A stretch of DNA of 62,502 nt, filler included. It is 21 parts of 21 records of this genome, joined end to end, with 100 filler letters (N's around TTAATTAATTAA, not from the genome) between each part and the next. Parts side by side here need not be neighbours in the genome. Positions count along the whole stretch, not along the records: positions 59,822 to 62,502 come from SRR36015645_18230; 20 more parts are not named here. The stretch is one strand, 5' to 3'. The notes below the pieces were generated by a model. That model had not been told where the DNA came from. It worked only from the letters and a program-made list of their open reading frames with translations, and made no database searches. Below are positions 3,097-62,502 of the stretch, piece by piece (the stretch's first letter is position 1; every line of letters starts with the position of its first letter). The position numbers and the translations under genes are program-made.

Positions 3097-4969
3097 ATGG
3101 AAAACCTGCGACGACCTTCGGCAAACGCCGTACAAAGGGAAATCGACCTGGACTTCCGAAAAGTCGTGCAAACGGCTATAACACCATCATCATCGTATAT
3201 CAAAAGAAACTCACCACTTCATCAACAGTTAAAAACAATAACATTAAGAAAGAACCGTCTACGAAAATTTGCATTTAAGGACAGTAACTGTAAGAAACAA
3301 TTATTTTCCTGTATTCGTGAGATACAGAAACTTAAAAGGAAAATTGCCATCAGTGATGTTCAGCAGTCCTTGGATCAGTTCAAAACTCATTTCCAGAATG
3401 TGACACTACAACGACACTAAATCACTTCCGCTCTACATATGAAAAAATTGAACAATCCACCATTCCTGATGAGCTTCTACCGGTACGTACAATCCAATAC
3501 GAATTTGACAACTCGCCAATCACACTGAAAGAAGTCCAGAATGCCATCCGTAGATCCAACATCAAATCAGCACCGGGACAAGACAAAGTTACATACAAAC
3601 ACCTCCGAAATCCAGACATCCCACCAAGTGTTGTCCAACTATTTAACCACATACTTGATAACGCAACACCTCCGACAGACTGGTCATCAGCGATTATCAC
3701 CCTCATCTACAAAAAAGGATTGAAATCTGACCCAAGCAACTACAGACCGATCTCGATTACGTCATGTCTCGCAAGAACATTCCACAGGATTCTAGCCGAC
3801 CGTCTTGAAACATACATCAAACAGAATAACATAATTGACACTGACATACATAAAGGATTCATCAAAAATATTAAAGGAACCATTGACTATCCATTTATAG
3901 TTCATGAACTCATAACAGATACAAAATTTAAGAACAAAACGTTAAATATCACTTTTCTGGATCTGAAGGATGCGTTTGGAAATATTCCACATGATCTGGT
4001 AAGTCAAGCTTTACACAACTTGGGGTTACCTGATAACATTCTCATATATCTCAACACACTATACTCCCGACTATCTGCAAAAGTAAAAGCATGTGATGGG
4101 GTGACAGGGGAGTTCCGTTTCAGAAAGGGGGTATTCCAGGGTGACAGCCTGAGTGCTTTAATTTTTATTATATGTACCGAACTCATCAACAAACGCTTCA
4201 TACAAGAGGCCCAACAACATGCATATAAAATGACTGACGGAACCCCAACATGCTTCCTTGCCTATGTCGATGATACCTGTCTCATCACCGACGACACCAC
4301 TCAACATCAACCTGTAAATCAGCATCCCTAGCCCTCCGCCCTGACAAATGTATAAGCCTGACTGTCCGTAATGGAATAATCTCTCCACTACACACGACCA
4401 TCGCAGGCATACCAACAAAAGTACTAGACAGAACCCCATCAAAGTACCTTGGCAGTATCATGATGACTAACCACATTATAGGCCACTCCTGTCACCTTCT
4501 AAAGAAACTACAAACAGTCATCAACAACATTGACACAACAAAACACCTTAGAGGCCGAGATAGGATCAAAATCCTGCTCAACTATTTCATACCAGCATTA
4601 CATTTCAACCTCATGGTCAATGAACTATCCTATAACGTTCTCAAACAAATGGACAAGACCTGTACAAAAGCCCTAACAAAATGGCGGTCCAATGATCCTA
4701 ACTATCACAAAATGACTACAACCCGGCCCTATATCCCACCAACCACTCTCTACACAGCAATTCAAGCCCAAACATACTTACACAGGCTTTATTCCGATGA
4801 CCGAGTTGTCTCAGCTGTATTTCAGAAATTCGACCGAGAACAAAACCCAGCCCTCCAATTAGCCATGGATATCTTTTTAAAAACGCCTAGTCTGAAAAAA
4901 GCTCTCAAACAACTGAAAACAACTGCAGACCTAAACATAGATCTTGACAATAACTATCCGCCAGCCTGA
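3097..4969 (+). pseudogene. Disrupted non-LTR retrotransposon RT, R2-group (HERO/NeSL-like)
   Basis: The frame open from about 3357 to 4331 reads SAPGQD, YRPISITS, IDTDIHKGF, DLKDAFGNIPH, GVFQGDSLS and AYVDD. KYLG and the thumb follow after a frameshift (4460..4969). No C-terminal RLE domain is visible. Confidence 0.75.
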
Positions 4970-6122: not shown

Positions 6123-7067
6123 ATGGCCGATGCCGCTGCTTCGACAGGTGATAAAGCGAATGACAGTTTTGTGTCAGCGACGTCTGAAAGGAACGAGATG
6201 GAGCTTGCCGACGGGGTAAAGAGGACCCATGACGAGGTATCAGACAGTTCTGTAAATACCACGCCTGATGCGAAGCTGCCTAAATACACAATATACAGGG
6301 CCGACGATCCTGATGCAGACATTGCAAAACTGAAGCGGGCTCTGACGGATCCATCTGTAGTCGATCTGTATGTACAGTCTCAGGCTGAGGCTGTCAAAAA
6401 GCTCATCGCCGCCGATATCGAGGCTTTGATCGAGTTCCGCGTGAAAGAACAGTGCGAAAAGTTCATGGAGACCAAGATAGCTGAGAGATGCGATCTTGTC
6501 GTAGCAGAGAGCCGTCACGAGGTGGAAGTGCTGCGTCGTGACAACGAGAAGCTCCACGCCAAAATTCACGACTTGGAGCAACAGGTCCAAGCTCAGGATG
6601 CTCGAGACGATGAGCTCGAACAATATGGCAGACGAAATGGTGTCCGCATTTGGGGTATCCGTGAGTCAGCGAACGAAAGTACGGATGCCATAGTTGTCCA
6701 GCTGTGTAAGGACCTAAATGTCGATATTCAGCCATGCGACATATCAAGGTCACATCGAGTTGGTAGGCCGTCCTCTGATGCTGCCGCTAAACCAAGGGCT
6801 ATTATTTGTAAGTTCGTCACTTATAATAAACGCCGATTGCTCTACCAAAATCGGTCGAATCTGAGGAAGCAGGAACGCAGCAGAAAGATTTTCATCAGTG
6901 AAGACCTGACAAAGCTAAGATCCCGCCTTTTCTATGAGTGCCGCCAACTCCTCCAGTCCAAGAAGATAGAAGGAACTTGGACATCGGACGGCAGGATCTT
7001 AGTGAAGGACAAGGCTGGGAAAATACTTCAGATGAAGAGTTACGAAGACATTTCCAAACTAAAATAA
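6123..7067 (+). CDS. LINE ORF1-type protein (coiled coil + RRM + CTD, L1-ORF1/Transposase_22-like, CR1/L2-group style)
   Basis: Coiled coil, then ELEQYGRRNGVRIWGI, DISRSHRVG, PRAIICKF, IFISEDLT and WTSDGRILVK. Confidence 0.85.
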   Translation: MADAAASTGDKANDSFVSATSERNEMELADGVKRTHDEVSDSSVNTTPDAKLPKYTIYRADDPDADIAKLKRALTDPSVVDLYVQSQAEAVKKLIAADIEALIEFRVKEQCEKFMETKIAERCDLVVAESRHEVEVLRRDNEKLHAKIHDLEQQVQAQDARDDELEQYGRRNGVRIWGIRESANESTDAIVVQLCKDLNVDIQPCDISRSHRVGRPSSDAAAKPRAIICKFVTYNKRRLLYQNRSNLRKQERSRKIFISEDLTKLRSRLFYECRQLLQSKKIEGTWTSDGRILVKDKAGKILQMKSYEDISKLK

Positions 7068-8655
7068 TTAGCACATCAACTGATCAGAAGCTAAATGGTT
7101 TCAGTAATTCTACATGCTCCCTAGTAGCCTACTCATATTGCCAATTAGTAAAAATGAGTGCCTTTTCGTTTTTTTAACCAGATATTTGAAAAATGTTCCA
7201 CTATAAATTTACATTAATTCCCTGTTGGCACACTTAATGTAGGAGATGACTGTGATCTTTTTAAGGAAAGTGCTTTTTTGCAAAGTATAAAATTTACTTC
7301 GTATGTATACCTTGCGAAATGTTAGAAATGTGTTCGGTACAATCCAAACTAGATTATTATTTTTTCTGTCAACACATGCAAGGTCATTTATTACATAGCT
7401 TCACTGGCAATGACAATATTATTACAGAAAAGTGTGCGCGAATAATTAACACGGTCTTTAGGCTGTAGCAAACAATTGTGTTTAAGTCGTATTAGTCGGA
7501 TACAAAAGTTGTATTTTGTTTATCTATTTTCTGTAGCTCTTATGTGGCAAAATTGATTTGTGGTGCTCCTCCAAAAGCAATTCTATTATACCAATAGCAG
7601 TTTTTTTCGGTACTCGTTATACCCGTTCTGTACATGTATGAGCCGCCCATTTTGAATTTTACAACTTTTTGCTGTAATATCAAAAAATTATCCATACATG
7701 TACATGTACTACAGTATTAAATAATGTTAAAAAATAGCACAGGAACCCGAAACGCTTGCACGGAACTTTTTTTCTGTTCAAAAAGCCTAGATAAAAAACA
7801 AATAAATTGTTTTTGGACCACATACTATGCCACACAGGAATTTGTGATAGTCTTTATTTTGGGAATATGAGAGAACAATATTCTAAGTATGTGACTGCTC
7901 ATCATGCATGTTCTAAAGTTGTAAAATGCTAGTATCCACTGATTACATATAGATGCCGATATTACTTTTGCTTTTGATTTTGCTATGTACCTTGAAATAC
8001 AAATTTCGAAGTGAAATTTGCTTTTATTTTATGTCAAGTGATGCTCTTTTACTGATCGATCAGCACTTGGAATCTGTGTTTACTGATATAGGCCTACCTT
8101 ATTAATATATTTGAGATGTGAAGTATTACTTTGCGTGGAATATATTTCCATGATTTATATGCTCGTTCAGTGTGCGTTTTTAAAATAATAATTTATTTTT
8201 GCTTTACAGTAGATACTCTGCCTAACCACGGATCTCTTAAACGTTAAACAACCGTCAGGGTCATTCTTTATTGATGATGCGTGGCTAACATGATGCTTAT
8301 TCAATGAAAGTGTGTGTTAATAATGAATACCGGTCTAAATTCTCTGGGTATTACCTGCTGATGACACTATGAAGATTTTTTCAGTTTCGTTACTTTTACG
8401 GATTATGCTATGCAGATACAAAAAAAAAACAGACTGTTTACGGTACCGATACTTACATGTATGCTACTCATTGCAGCCTTTTTNNNNNNNNNNNNNNNNN
8501 NNNNNNNNNNNNNNNNNNNNNNNNNNNTTAATTAATTAANNNNNNNNNNNNNNNNNNNNNNNNNNNNNNNNNNNNNNNNNNNNCAGTCTAGTAGTACAGG
8601 AGCTAAGGGTGCGCGTAGTGATGTTAGCTGGGCTACGGCGAGCCAGGCATCCGGT

Positions 8656-56555: not shown

Positions 56556-57659
56556 ATGTCAGCAGGGGGTGCATCTGGTGGAGATGGAAAACAGATTCCG
56601 CTAAGCGGCAAGGCCAACATGGCCAAGAGTTCGAAGTCAAAAAATGTTAAACCTAAATCGAGGTATAGTGTATCAACACACACGGATGTAATTGACGAAG
56701 TAGGGTATGAATCACCGTTTGACACAGATGGTAACTGTCTAGTTTGTGACAGCCCTGTGTTGGATTTGGAGAAAGGCCTGCAGTGTATGATTTGTGAAAG
56801 ATGGTTTCATATTCAATGTGCGGGTATGGAAGAACCAGTTTACGACACTTTGGTTAACTATAGTTCTGCTAAAAAACTTCATTGGTTCTGCCAAAACTGT
56901 GAATTTGGTTGTAAGAATGTTTTTAAAGCTATTAGTAATATTACGGTCAGGCAGGACAAGTTCGAAAAGGAGCTGGATGTCATGAGAAAGGAAGTTAACT
57001 CTAAATGTGATAAACAGGAGATGCAACAGGTAGTTGAAGTACTGGATGTTGTTCAAACACAAGTTACACAACTGTGTGAGAAAGCTAGCACAAGCTCCGT
57101 AAAATCTGTGATTCAGTCAGAGGTGGGTAATGTTGTCAAAGAGAAAGTGGCAGAGGAGTATGATAGAGAGAGTAGGAAATGCAACATAATTGTTTACAAA
57201 CTAGAGGAGATGGTGGATACTAGTAATAAGAATAAAGGGGTACGTCAGGGTGCTGCTGCTTCGGCAGATAGTGCTAAATCAAATCAACATCTCAGTGATC
57301 TGTCAAAGCTTGCTTCTGTTGGTAAAATAGTAGGTATCGATATGGAAAGTGTAGTTGACAGTTGTACACGTTTAGGGAAAATAGAAAAAGGTGGCCCACC
57401 TAGGCCGCTACTTGTCAGATTCAAGGATTTGTCATCGAAACTTAACTTGCTCAAAAATCTGAATAAGTTAAGCGAATCTGAATATCAGATATTAAGTATT
57501 GAGCAGGACATGTCAAAAAAGGACAGGGAAGCTGCAAAGCAACTTAGGCAAGAGGCCAAGTCCTCAGAAGATAGAGATAAGACGGGGGACTTTATATACA
57601 GAGTCAGGGGCAAACCAGGTTGTCAAAAGATAGTCAAAATGAAAAAGAAAAACCAGTAA
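56556..57659 (+). CDS. CR1 LINE ORF1 with PHD finger
   Basis: CLVC..CMICERWFHIQC..WFCQNC, a coiled coil, RKCNIIVY, RLGK..PRPLLVRF and SIEQD. Confidence 0.9.
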   Translation: MSAGGASGGDGKQIPLSGKANMAKSSKSKNVKPKSRYSVSTHTDVIDEVGYESPFDTDGNCLVCDSPVLDLEKGLQCMICERWFHIQCAGMEEPVYDTLVNYSSAKKLHWFCQNCEFGCKNVFKAISNITVRQDKFEKELDVMRKEVNSKCDKQEMQQVVEVLDVVQTQVTQLCEKASTSSVKSVIQSEVGNVVKEKVAEEYDRESRKCNIIVYKLEEMVDTSNKNKGVRQGAAASADSAKSNQHLSDLSKLASVGKIVGIDMESVVDSCTRLGKIEKGGPPRPLLVRFKDLSSKLNLLKNLNKLSESEYQILSIEQDMSKKDREAAKQLRQEAKSSEDRDKTGDFIYRVRGKPGCQKIVKMKKKNQ

Positions 57660-59721
57660 GTTTATCTTCAGATAGGACTATTATTGTAAATAGTACAATT
57701 GAAACAGCATGTAGTGGTGTTTCAAATACAGCAGTCCCAACTGCAAAGCCAAATATTTTTAATAAGCTTAAAATTTTATACACTAATGCTGATACATACA
57801 TAAACAAGAGACAAGAGTTTATTAGCCGACTTGGTACGTTTGGAGAAGATAAGCCCAATATTATTGCTATAACTGAAGTCAAACCTAAGGGTAAAAGGTA
57901 TGTCATAGAACAGTGTGAATTACAACTACCTGGTTATCACCTTTTTTCTAGAAATATTGCAGATGATTCAGGCAGAGGCATTGTTATGTATTGTGACGAG
58001 CGTCTTACATGTTCTGAAATTGATATTAACACCAGTTTTGATGAAGTCTTGTGTATTGAAATTGAATTGTGCAATTCTGATAAAGCTTTAATTGCTTGTG
58101 TATATCGCAGCCCAAGTAGCACAGACGAAAATAATGAACGCTTGCTAGAAACTTTTAAACAGTTTGATTCTTCAAATAAATACTGTCAAAAACTTGTGCT
58201 TGGAGATTTCAATTTTCCAAAAGTCGACTGGAATGACTGGTGTACTAAATCCTCTGTCAGTATAGATAATAGATTTAAAAATCTGGTGAGAGACTTGTTT
58301 TGGTCACAGCATGTTACTTGTAACACACGGGCTAGGGGAGCGGATAACCCTTCTCTCCTGGATTTAGTGTTAACAGAAGAGGAAGACTCTGTTGATGATG
58401 TTGAATACTATAGCCCGTTAGGCAAAAGCGACCATTCTGTACTATGTTTTAATATGTTATGCAATGTTTGTTTCACTGATACTTCTGCAAATTGTAAAAA
58501 GCAAATTGAAAAGGGGGACTATGATAAATTTAATGAAATTTTGAATAGAGACTGGCAGAAAGAGTTTGATGATTGTCCAGACGATGCACAAGCGCAATGG
58601 GATATTTTTTATTCATATTACAAAAAAGCAGAGAAAGAATGTATACCGTACAGAAAATGTAAAGTTACGAATGGGAACAAAGCCTTTAAATATGCTTTAG
58701 ATAAAAAGTCACTAGCTCTTATCAGGAAAAAACATTGTGTGTGGAAAAGGTTTATGGAAACAAGAGATGGTGAGAAGTACAGGGAGTATGCTGCAATACG
58801 AAATAAAGTGAGAAGTTTAACCAGGAAAGTTCACAGAGATGCAGAGCGGGCAGTGGTGAAGGATGTAAAGAAGAACCCTAAGAAGTTCTGGAGTTTTGTT
58901 AATTCTAAAACCAAATCGAAAGATAAAATTTCTGATCTTGAATACTCAAATGAGAATGGAGTTAAAGCTAAAACTAAAAATAATAACGAGAAAGCTAATG
59001 TATTAAATGCCTTTTTTGGATCTGTCTTTACTAATGAGAATACCAGTGATATTCCAGAGAAACCTACAGTAGAGGGATTGAACGACTCTCTTGCAAACAT
59101 GACTGTCACTGAAGATATGGTGACCAAGAAAATTGACAATTTACAGCAAAACAAATCACCAGGCCCTGATGGTATTCATCCCTATGTAATCAAAAAAGTA
59201 AAAGACAACATCACTGCTCCATTAACAATTATTTTTAACACAACCTTGAGAACAGGTGTGCTGCCATCTTCATGGAAAGAAGCTCACATTACGGCAATCT
59301 ATAAGAGAAAAGGGTTAAAGAAGCTTCCAGACAATTATAGACCAGTGAGCTTAACTAGTATAATTTGTAAAATCATCGAATCAATTATTAGGGATGAAAT
59401 TATTCTTTTCATGAAAAGAAATAAATTATTCAGTAACAAGCAATACGGCTTTATATTTGGACGTTCTACAACTCTACAATTATTGAAGGTTTTAGATAAT
59501 TGGACTCGAATTCTGGATAATGGTGGATGCTTGGATGTAATTTACTTAGACTTCATGAAGGCTTTCGACACCGTGCCTCATAAGAGGCTGATCAAAAAAC
59601 TTGAGTCGTATAACATTCATGGTAACATAAAAAATTGGATAGAAAATTTTCTGTCTAATCGTAAACAAAGAGTAAATGTTAATGGTGAATTTTCAGAATG
59701 GACAACTGTTATTAGTGGTAT
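57620..59721 (+). CDS. CR1 LINE ORF2 (APE + RT), truncated, non-AUG start
   Basis: YTNAD, ITE, YRSP, GDFN, LDLVLT, SDH, KNPKKFW, SPGPDGIHP, NYRPVSLTS and YLDFMKAFDTVPH. Confidence 0.95.
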
Positions 59722-59821
59722 NNNNNNNNNNNNNNNNNNNNNNNNNNNNNNNNNNNNNNNNNNNNTTAATTAATTAANNNNNNNNNNNNNNNNNNNNNNN
59801 NNNNNNNNNNNNNNNNNNNNN

Positions 59822-61051
59822 TTTCCGGCTAGGGCATTGGATGCAGGAGTGATTGGTTCACGTCCTTTTCCACCGAGTCCCTTTGTCGCTCCGTCGACCA
59901 GTGTTTTTACCAGATCTGGTGGCGCCGATAGTGGTGTAGCTGCGTTTCCGTATAGTGCGTCCAGGCCTTGTTACTTCCCGCCTGACCGCTCGGAGTCTGG
60001 TGGCTTCGTTGGTTCTAGGATGATGGAACGTGTTCATGCCGCACCCTGTCTGGTTGGTTCAGCAGCTTCTGTGCCGAGGATCGTGAGTAATCCGTACGTT
60101 ACTACCGTTCAGTCATCCTCCGACCAGTCTCTGCATAGAACAGACGATGACTTAGAGCGGTTGTCCTTGCAAGAATTACAGCATTCTTTACACCTCTTGG
60201 AGGTAGAGGAGCAGAGGCGTTCCTTGATCGGAAAGATTAAAGGCATTAAGAGTCGCCGTGGTCCAGAGAACGTTTCGATGCAAGACCTTGGGCAGTTGAG
60301 GTTGGAGGCTCGGAATATGATGGATAGTGATCCGGTCTTCGGGCGTCCTTCCGTCCATTCGAACATTTCCGGTAGGCATCCTGCATGTTCTAATGTCTGT
60401 TCAGATGATGGCAGGATGAAGTCTGGTATAAATTTAAAATGCGCTGACAATATTAGATACCAGCAGTATTATCCACAGCAGTTTCTGCATTATCTGGATA
60501 GAAATGTCAGTTATTTTGAGCTTACTATGTCCCAGTTTGTGGCAGGCTATATGTCTATCATGTTAGTCAACAGCATTTCGGACGATGAACGCCAAGGGCG
60601 TATGAGGCATTTGGCTAAGCTAATGCATTTTGCGCAAGGCCATCCTTGGTCTGTAATTTTGAACTTGCATAAATCTGTTGTTTATGCCATTGAAATTGGT
60701 CAAAAATCGTGGCTTGATGAATTTGCAGAAATTGAAAATGCTGTTTTGTTGAGCAACGTTAACAATAGACCACAGCCTGCTCAAACTGCGGCAATTCATA
60801 GAGGCCCCACTAGTGCTTCTGAGAGTAGGAGCGTCTTCTGGTGTGCAAACTTTCAAACTGATAAATGTATTGTTAATGCAAACAGTCATTCGCAGCTTAT
60901 TGCTGGCGTGCAACGCCAAGTGCTTCATATTTGTCGCAGGTGTTGGCGAAAGAAACAAGTTAAAACTTGGCATTCAGAACAATCTGCTTCTTGCCCTAGT
61001 AGGGTATCTGTTTATGAGCAGGCGCAGTCCGTTCCTCCTAGTTCTAGCTGA
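59822..61051 (+). CDS. DIRS/Ngaro-type gag-like ORF, 5' truncated, ending in TGA-CTAG
   Basis: LTMSQFVAGY..W..W core and a C-terminal CANFQTDKC..H..HICRRC..H..C zinc finger, directly upstream of a DIRS-type RT. Confidence 0.75.
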   Translation, partial: FPARALDAGVIGSRPFPPSPFVAPSTSVFTRSGGADSGVAAFPYSASRPCYFPPDRSESGGFVGSRMMERVHAAPCLVGSAASVPRIVSNPYVTTVQSSSDQSLHRTDDDLERLSLQELQHSLHLLEVEEQRRSLIGKIKGIKSRRGPENVSMQDLGQLRLEARNMMDSDPVFGRPSVHSNISGRHPACSNVCSDDGRMKSGINLKCADNIRYQQYYPQQFLHYLDRNVSYFELTMSQFVAGYMSIMLVNSISDDERQGRMRHLAKLMHFAQGHPWSVILNLHKSVVYAIEIGQKSWLDEFAEIENAVLLSNVNNRPQPAQTAAIHRGPTSASESRSVFWCANFQTDKCIVNANSHSQLIAGVQRQVLHICRRCWRKKQVKTWHSEQSASCPSRVSVYEQAQSVPPSSS

Positions 61052-62502
61052 CTAGAAAATGAAAAGGCTTCCGAGCCATGTCAATCTGTGGTAGATAATG
61101 CCGTGTGCGTTGAGAAGGACATGAGTGTGCCTAATAGCGATGTTGAGCACACTCACGTGAATTCTTATTTTGGTTCTTCCGCCAGCTTCACTGCAAAGTG
61201 CCCAGATTACAAGTGTATCACTACGTGCATATGGTTTTTAAGCATATTGTATATTTTATTATTACTAACCGTTATTTTCGGTAGTAGGGATTTGTTATGT
61301 CCTTTAGAGGGGGCCACAAACAGCATTGTACGTGCTCCTAGTTATGCACTGGTCACTACTGACAAACGTGACCCTGTTTGTGTTTCTGTGGATAGGCCTA
61401 GTGCTATTGTTGAGAAGTCGTCAACGTACCGGGATGGCTGTGCACGTGATGATTATATTGCATGTGACTTGCAGTCATTGTATAGTTTTGTATATCCGAG
61501 AAAAGAGTGTACGGTGGTTGAAAAAATAGTTAGTTTTTGTAAATTTGATGAGCTGTGTCATATTAATGAATTTTATCCGGATGTAGATCTGCGTGATCGG
61601 TTGCATCTATATGTTGATAAGTCTGATTTTGTCAGTGTTGCAAATGCTATTTTGTGTTCTGGTTTGCCTAATTTTGCTGGTTTGAGGATTCCGGTTAGTA
61701 CCTCACTTAGGATTGGGTCATGGCGTGAGATGCTGCGAGATTATCACGATTATGTAATTTGTGATTATTTGGAATTTGGTTGGCCCATTGGGTTTTCGTA
61801 TGAGCACTTGCCTGTTAATGTAGGTGTTTCTAATTATAATGGCGCCTTGGATTTTAAGGATGCTGTTGATGATTATATTTGTGTAGAATTGCAGCACAAT
61901 AGTGTGGGCGGGCCGTGGGAAATTAATCCGTTCGTTGTTAAGTGCGTGGTTTCTCCATTGAACACAGTGCCCAAGGGTTCTAATAAGCGTCGTACAATTC
62001 TTGACTTAAGTCATGGTAAATCAGGGGACTCGGTTAATGATGCTATTTCCAGAACACACTACTTGGGACAGCGATTTAGTTTAACCTTACCCAGTTTTTC
62101 GGACATGGCTAATCTAGTCGTTTATGCTGGTGTTGACGCATATATGTGGAAAGTGGACTTGGCTAGAAGTTTTCGCCAGTTTCCCATTGATCCACGGGAT
62201 GCACATTTGTTGTGCTTTACATGGAATGGCAAATTGTTTTGCGATAGAGTTTTTCCTATGGGTATGCGTTCTTCTTGCTTAGGCTTGCAGAGAATTACGG
62301 ATGCTGTATGCTATTTGATGTGGAAACGTGGTTTCAAATGTGAAAACTACATTGATGATATTTTTGGTGTGGAGTCTAGTTACGGTCAAGCTTGTGCTGC
62401 ATTTAATACTGTGCATGATATATTGGCTGAACTGGGTATGATGGCTAATCATGATAAAAATGTTGAGCCTACCACTAATTGTGATGTGTTAGGTATTAAT
62501 GT
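61052..62502 (+). CDS. DIRS/Ngaro-type reverse transcriptase (missing from the ORF track), in frame with gag, runs off the window
   Basis: Manual translation without stops: SGLPNF..RIPV, EFGWPIG, SPLNTVPK, RRTILDLS, SVNDAI, KVDLARSFRQFPIDP, FPMGMRSS, NYIDD (Y at 62348) and VLGI. Confidence 0.9.

Follow-up and report, generated by a model that had tools for sequence, protein, structure and literature searches.

An in-frame UGA-C stop codon conserved between gag and pol of Ngaro-type retrotransposons points to expression of Gag-Pol by readthrough

The stretch of DNA analyzed here (the window, positions 1-62502) consists of about 21 short contigs of 2-5 kb each, joined by 100-base linkers, and the last contig, a single piece of 2681 bases (2.68 kb) at 59822-62502, carries a gag-like first open reading frame (ORF1) and the beginning of the pol gene of a retrotransposon whose relatives support its assignment to the Ngaro type. 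Because the contigs have been joined artificially, features on either side of a linker are not physically linked. The piece and the linker before it are laid out as follows:

59722-59821, no strand: assembly linker, N44-TTAATTAATTAA-N44; everything 5' of it belongs to another contig
59822-61048, + strand: gag-like ORF1, its frame already open where the piece begins; 404 codons when counted from the TTG at 59837
61049-61051, + strand: gag stop codon TGA, the proposed readthrough site, read directly
61052-61055, + strand: CTAG immediately 3' of the stop, a readthrough-promoting context, read directly
61052-61660, + strand: poorly conserved spacer of 203 codons, open in frame from the stop to the conserved pol core, delimited by profile mapping
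61121-61123, + strand: first in-frame ATG after the stop, 23 codons past it, a rival start for pol
61217-61282, + strand: hydrophobic stretch of 22 residues in the spacer, read by eye
61661-62500, + strand: conserved pol core (reverse transcriptase, RT), cut by the window end, recognized by an RVT_1 match and by homologues
61952-61975, + strand: SPLNTVPK, within the pol core
62348-62359, + strand: YIDD, the RT motif, within the pol core

The junction reads ...agc TGA cta gaa..., and past the TGA the gag frame continues open for 483 codons, to 62500, into a pol with a Pfam RVT_1 match (E=2.3e-8). An earlier reading made from the letters of the window (the sequence-only reading) had ended gag at this TGA with CTAG directly after it, had followed the same frame for about 480 codons through an RT with YIDD to the window end, and had proposed that a Gag-RT polyprotein of an Ngaro/DIRS element is made by programmed readthrough; the first two of these observations are reproduced above. 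The window end falls inside the RT, and the RNase H and the recombinase lie beyond the visible sequence of this copy. Taken by itself the window is unremarkable: a junction in frame whose first ATG comes only after 23 open codons has a chance of roughly 1 in 10, to which the CTAG context adds about 1 in 256. One copy cannot tell a programmed signal from a chance nonsense mutation and homologues were therefore collected; once these relatives are compared, the pattern is, on the counts given below, far beyond chance.

A search with the pol protein returned 13 proteins at E<=1e-45 that are 36-44% identical to it across the RT region; they carry RVT_1 and weak RNase H matches, and one of them has a recombinase-like tail. 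Metagenome contigs scanned with the pol alignment yielded 239 relatives, and the best 80 of the 239 (35-45% RT identity) were analyzed by mapping gag-core and pol-core profiles on all of their frames, with stops read as X. The 80 loci and the window make up 81 rows, which collapse into 62 lineages when near-copies are merged (clusters at 80% RT identity). The gag core was found upstream of the pol core in 60 of the 81 rows, the contigs of the remaining 21 being too short.

Gag and pol were found to share one frame with exactly one stop between them in 42 of these 60 rows, representing 33 of the 62 lineages, and in all 42 rows that single stop is TGA and the next base is C. All 33 in-frame lineages thus keep TGA with C at +4, against a background in the same loci where TGA makes up 39% of stop triplets and is followed by C in 23% of cases. 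The codon after the stop is CTA in 13 of the 33 lineages (CTAG in 9), CTG in 5, CTC in 3, CTT in 3, CAA in 2, CAG in 2 and CGG, CCG, CCA, CAT or CAC in 1 each. When positions -18 to +36 are tabulated over the same lineages, only the TGA (+1 to +3) and the C at +4 are invariant. Of the 33 lineages, 24 have T at +5, 16 have A at +6 and 17 have G at +7, and the remaining positions hold about 0-0.4 bit. Of the 46 informative lineages, 35 have pol in the frame of gag (frame 0), where one third would be expected (P=4e-9). Two outcomes named beforehand as refuting the sequence-only reading, a sense codon in place of the stop or a pol in another frame, are absent from most lineages, and the comparison with relatives strongly supports its proposal of programmed readthrough.

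The junction between pol and the recombinase gene, available in 48 lineages, served as an internal control. There the three frames are used 15, 14 and 19 times, the stops are TAG in 17, TAA in 18 and TGA in 13, and the +4 base is T in 28, C in 10, A in 7 and G in 3; the control junction is thus without the TGA-C and frame-0 pattern seen between gag and pol. In these 48 lineages the pol stop and the start of the recombinase ORF are no more than tens of bases apart, whatever the frame and the stop codon (e.g. at 4236 in L017, 3496 in L029 and 3518 in L051), and L051 has its four ORFs all in a single frame, each divided from the next by one stop.

The simplest alternative, that the TGA is a one-off nonsense mutation (e.g. 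from CGA or TGG) in a defunct copy of an element whose gag and pol are fused, draws on the presence of only one copy in the window, but it is at odds with the conservation of the gag end itself. When the gag-like protein was searched with phmmer against 1.84 billion representatives, 1078 proteins were found at E<=1e-3 and 478 at E<=1e-10, and among the 150 matches listed nearly all end 0-5 residues past the stretch aligned to residues 388-390. The position of the gag stop is therefore conserved and is not that of a one-off mutation inside a fused ORF; in addition, no fused gag-pol protein occurs among the pol matches of 488-1554 residues. With the gag end conserved and the stop TGA in 42 of 42 in-frame rows, the nonsense-mutation explanation was rejected, and we regard it as very improbable.

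That the stop is always UGA could instead mean that selenocysteine is inserted there, or that the host has a variant code in which UGA is a sense codon. Over the 25,481 codons from gag to pol in 33 representatives, however, only 8 other in-frame stops occur (4 TGA and 4 TAA), in 5 decayed copies, and each gag-pol has otherwise its single TGA; TGA is, by this codon count, no sense codon in the TGA-C elements. An Rfam scan of six full-length relatives gave no matches at the gathering score and no selenocysteine insertion sequence (SECIS), and C at +4 is a feature of readthrough, not of selenocysteine. The variant-code explanation was rejected on the 4 extra in-frame TGAs, all in decayed copies, and selenocysteine and variant decoding together are given an equally slight chance of being correct.

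A more serious alternative is independent translation of pol, beginning at the ATG at 61121 or at another internal start, with the shared frame and the CTAG incidental. The ATG of the window copy is indeed in frame, and one clade of the family (L037, L041, L052, L071 and L075) does have separate ORFs. Across the TGA-C lineages, on the other hand, no in-frame ATG lies between the stop and the pol core in 19 of 33, with ATG-free spacers as long as 223 codons (L018) and 162 codons (L025), and neither the over-representation of frame 0 nor an invariant TGA-C within variable flanks is what an independent start predicts. Summed over lineages, 1734 codons are open from the stop to the first ATG or the core, and the other two frames there have 9.3% stops. 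Sister lineages also have spacer peptide motifs in common, which in L022 and L063 lie upstream of the first ATG. An independent start at the ATG near 61121 had been named beforehand as another outcome that would undo the readthrough proposal; it finds no place in the 19 ATG-free lineages but may serve the window copy, and for pol expression as a whole we consider it unlikely.

The stop might also be bypassed by termination and reinitiation, by splicing, or by RNA editing of the UGA. Nothing specific speaks for any of these, though the tight pol-to-recombinase junction in any frame suggests that some non-standard mode of expression exists elsewhere in these elements. Reinitiation needs a start codon, which most lineages lack, and does not need a shared frame; the surroundings of the stop show no conserved motif of a splice-like kind; and the letters that are conserved are precisely those that, in the available portion of PMC4132726, weaken termination. 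A bypass of this kind therefore appears distinctly unlikely.

Downstream RNA structure was considered as a further component of the signal. The 90 nucleotides (nt) at +7 to +96 past the stop are no more stably folded than their shuffles (mean z of +0.31, against -0.09 in a control stretch), and only 1 of the 33 lineages falls below a z of -2. Without excess structure downstream, the signal would therefore consist of the stop codon and its immediate 3' context, which is the behavior of the UGA-CUA/CGG class of readthrough sites.

Taken together, we consider it probable that this family, and the window copy with it, produces its Gag-Pol by readthrough of the UGA. Most ribosomes would terminate at UGA-CUAG and release Gag, while a minority would incorporate an amino acid at the UGA and translate on without a change of frame, across the variable spacer and into the RT and RNase H, so that a Gag-Pol fusion would appear in a fixed low proportion, as it does in gammaretroviruses; the stop codon and the context immediately 3' of it would carry the signal, in place of a downstream RNA structure. 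The anatomy of the junction and the conservation of in-frame TGA-C across diverged relatives are read directly from the alignments, and it is from these that we infer ribosomal readthrough and its rate.

Several points weigh against readthrough. The pol of the window copy could initiate at its own ATG at 61121-61123, 23 codons past the stop, and the hydrophobic stretch at 61217-61282 is an odd feature that resembles a membrane helix and has no counterpart seen in the spacers of the relatives. Off-pattern arrangements occur in 18 of the 60 gag-bearing rows, with pol in the -1 frame in 8, in the +1 frame in 4 and otherwise arranged in 6. The lineages are related, and agreement in 33 of 33 is not a count of 33 independent events, though the flanks around the junction are randomized. 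Codon-position and synonymous substitution counts in the spacers of close relatives are too few to show purifying selection. The metagenome loci carry no host assignment, and the window itself holds no second copy of the element by tblastn and blastn, leaving a single short contig.

The gag-pol stop of murine leukemia virus (MLV) is a UAG with a 3' pseudoknot. The present junction resembles that of MLV in having gag and pol in one frame with one stop codon between them, and differs from it in that the stop is UGA (42 of 42 rows) with a C(UAG) context and without excess downstream structure. According to the part of PMC4178896 that was available, the Gag-Pol of this gammaretrovirus is made by termination suppression. 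The context is likewise familiar: the accessible text of PMC4132726 gives 1.5% to about 31% readthrough for UGA-CUAG in human cells, about 12 nt on the 3' side being enough, and describes the identical UGA-CUAG motif, acting through immediate 3' context, in alphaviruses and in the vertebrate genes OPRL1, OPRK1, AQP4, MAPK10 and MDH1. Unlike those cases, the motif here lies at the gag-pol junction of a retroelement, and UGA-C alone is invariant, with CUA, CUG, CUC, CUU, CAA, CAG and CGG all occurring after the stop. Tca2, a Ty1/copia element of Candida, also has a UGA between gag and pol of a retrotransposon, but it is a long terminal repeat (LTR) element of another order with a putative 3' pseudoknot, and the section of PMC2194720 at hand calls the route by which its UGA is bypassed unclear.

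The piece is supported as the 5' half of a Ngaro-type tyrosine-recombinase retrotransposon, not of the DIRS1 type, by way of its relatives, since the window copy itself displays gag and RT only; the Ngaro/DIRS membership proposed from the sequence alone is in this way narrowed to the Ngaro type. Their pol ORFs of 660-790 residues match Pfam RT and RNase H families only (RVT_1 with RT_RNaseH or RVT_3) and the recombinase ORF follows directly, from which it follows that the relatives have no methyltransferase, the domain whose absence after RNase H sets Ngaro apart from DIRS1-like elements. The ORF3 of the relatives has the motifs RKSN...HSFRRGGA...GDWRSDAY..Y in 15 of 15 aligned sequences, with a weak Pfam Phage_integrase match (E=7.7e-4) in 1 of 5 scanned, and by its motifs is probably a tyrosine recombinase, while all five ORF4s scanned match Lipase_GDSL_2 (E between 1.3e-11 and 1.3e-3), indicating a GDSL/SGNH hydrolase of the kind found as an optional ORF in animal Ngaros. 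Split direct repeats of the form A1...B1-A2-B2 were found in the relative L019 (A1 2760-2865, B1 6805-6926, A2 6927-7032, B2 7056-7177; 100% identical), and L022 has a partial pattern of the same kind. An ORF order of gag, RT/RNase H, tyrosine recombinase and an optional SGNH/GDSL hydrolase, the lack of a methyltransferase and the split direct repeats are Ngaro features as set out in the available portions of PMC9210276 and PMC3266345. The same portions describe the Ngaro ORFs as overlapping in Xenopus Ngaro (PMC9210276) and as 'not usually overlapping' (PMC3266345), and contain no in-frame leaky stop between gag and pol of the sort seen in the TGA-C family. PMC8547959, PMC2632668 and PMC6681497 describe three ORFs and leave the gag-pol junction uncommented.

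The TGA-C type is not the only arrangement in the family. One clade (the L005 group, L007 and L072) has pol in the -1 frame, with the heptamer A_AAA_AAC, read in the gag frame, immediately preceding the gag stop; the heptamer occurs in 7 loci from 3 lineages, with gag/pol overlaps of 37-55 nt and differing flanks, and the clade, which groups together with L079, has a support of 100 (FastTree). The sites are:

L005, 2152-2161: A_AAA_AAC
L007, 1461-1470: A_AAA_AAC
L072, 1470-1479: A_AAA_AAC
L023, L026, L027 and L042: A_AAA_AAC as well

This clade likely uses a programmed -1 frameshift in place of readthrough, to judge from the heptamer and the frame of pol. A_AAA_AAC is among the heptamers most prone to shifting in mammalian ribosomes in the part of PMC5009743 available, and the pairing of this heptamer in the sister clade (not in the window copy) with a pol in the -1 frame is like the -1 frameshifting of retroviruses such as mouse mammary tumor virus (MMTV) and of astroviruses, with the difference that the heptamer of the sister clade abuts the gag stop directly. 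A second clade comprises 11 rows without the TGA-C type, of which 5 are informative members (L037, L041, L052, L071 and L075); the gag stops are not TGA-C, gaps of 103-235 nt separate gag from pol in four members while L037 has a 5-nt overlap, and in all five the pol ORF has an ATG among its codons 1-28, so that gag and pol appear to be separate ORFs in these elements. Three further relatives look like damaged copies, L067 and L020 having TGA-C with pol in the +1 frame and no ATG, and L019 having a second stop.

In a FastTree phylogeny of the 62 RT/RNase H cores, which holds family members only and no reference Ngaro, DIRS, PAT or VIPER sequences, the TGA-C type is found to either side of the midpoint root. 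We lean slightly toward the view that context-only readthrough at UGA-C(UAG) was the ancestral route to Gag-Pol in a large and widespread Ngaro clade, with the junction rebuilt at least twice, once as a -1 frameshift at A_AAA_AAC and once as separate ORFs.

The expression of pol in the DIRS order has so far been described, in the available portions of the literature cited above, only in terms of overlapping or separate ORFs, and a UGA-C(UAG) junction would supply a concrete mechanism. The full-text literature covered yielded no paper that ties Ngaro, DIRS or tyrosine-recombinase elements to readthrough or other recoding, in keeping with the suggestion of the sequence-only reading that the strategy is undescribed for this group, with the founding Ngaro papers (Goodwin & Poulter 2004; Poulter & Butler 2015), which may mention an in-frame stop, lying outside that coverage. 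Readthrough, if true, would add a whole retroelement order to the short list of natural UGA-CUAG cases, and an ancestral readthrough would give the DIRS order the first recoding signals assigned to it. Readthrough, -1 frameshifting and separate ORFs at one junction within one family would also form a natural series for the evolution of recoding signals. For annotation, the practical consequence is that gene callers split TGA-C elements at the stop.

The gag-like ORF1 that precedes the junction has its first ATG at 60020 and a TTG at 59837, and its 5' end may be cut, since the frame is already open at 59822. Three parts of it can be set apart:

60122-60256, + strand: long helix or coiled coil (residues 96-140), from the AlphaFold model and from structural matches to coiled coils only
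60404-61012, + strand: conserved gag core (residues 190-392), from the homologue alignment and profile
60842-60994, + strand: gag Cys/His tail, from conserved C and H positions

The AlphaFold model of gag (mean predicted local distance difference test score, pLDDT, of 72.9) consists of the long helix, a helical core and the Cys/His tail. Seven positions of the tail, C336, C344, H351, H364, C366, C369 and H379, are invariant among 41 homologous sequences, giving the pattern C-X7-C-X6-H-X12-H-X-C-X2-C-X9-H, and a further C six residues on (C386) is present in at least 90% of them; the tail is probably zinc-knuckle-like, and binding of zinc would follow from this resemblance. A Pfam scan of the ORF gave no match, Foldseek of the model against PDB gave no match at E<=0.001, and a wide search with VIA-align returned coiled-coil matches only (Z about 5). 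The label gag accordingly rests on position, homologues and the Cys/His tail, because there is no Pfam or solved-fold match beyond coiled coils.

On the other side of the linker, a LINE-type (long interspersed nuclear element, non-LTR) retrotransposon ORF at 57620-59721 (+ strand), with matches to Exo_endo_phos_2 (E=2.8e-11) and RVT_1 (E=3.2e-17), is cut by the end of its own contig; it is unrelated to the gag-RT piece and gives no context for it. Among the relatives, L010 holds two head-to-tail copies of one element (203-684 and 4268-4771), 4.07 kb apart and 88-93% identical, and gag also lies downstream of pol in L004, L008, L027, L028 and L047; tandem arrays seem to be common in this family.

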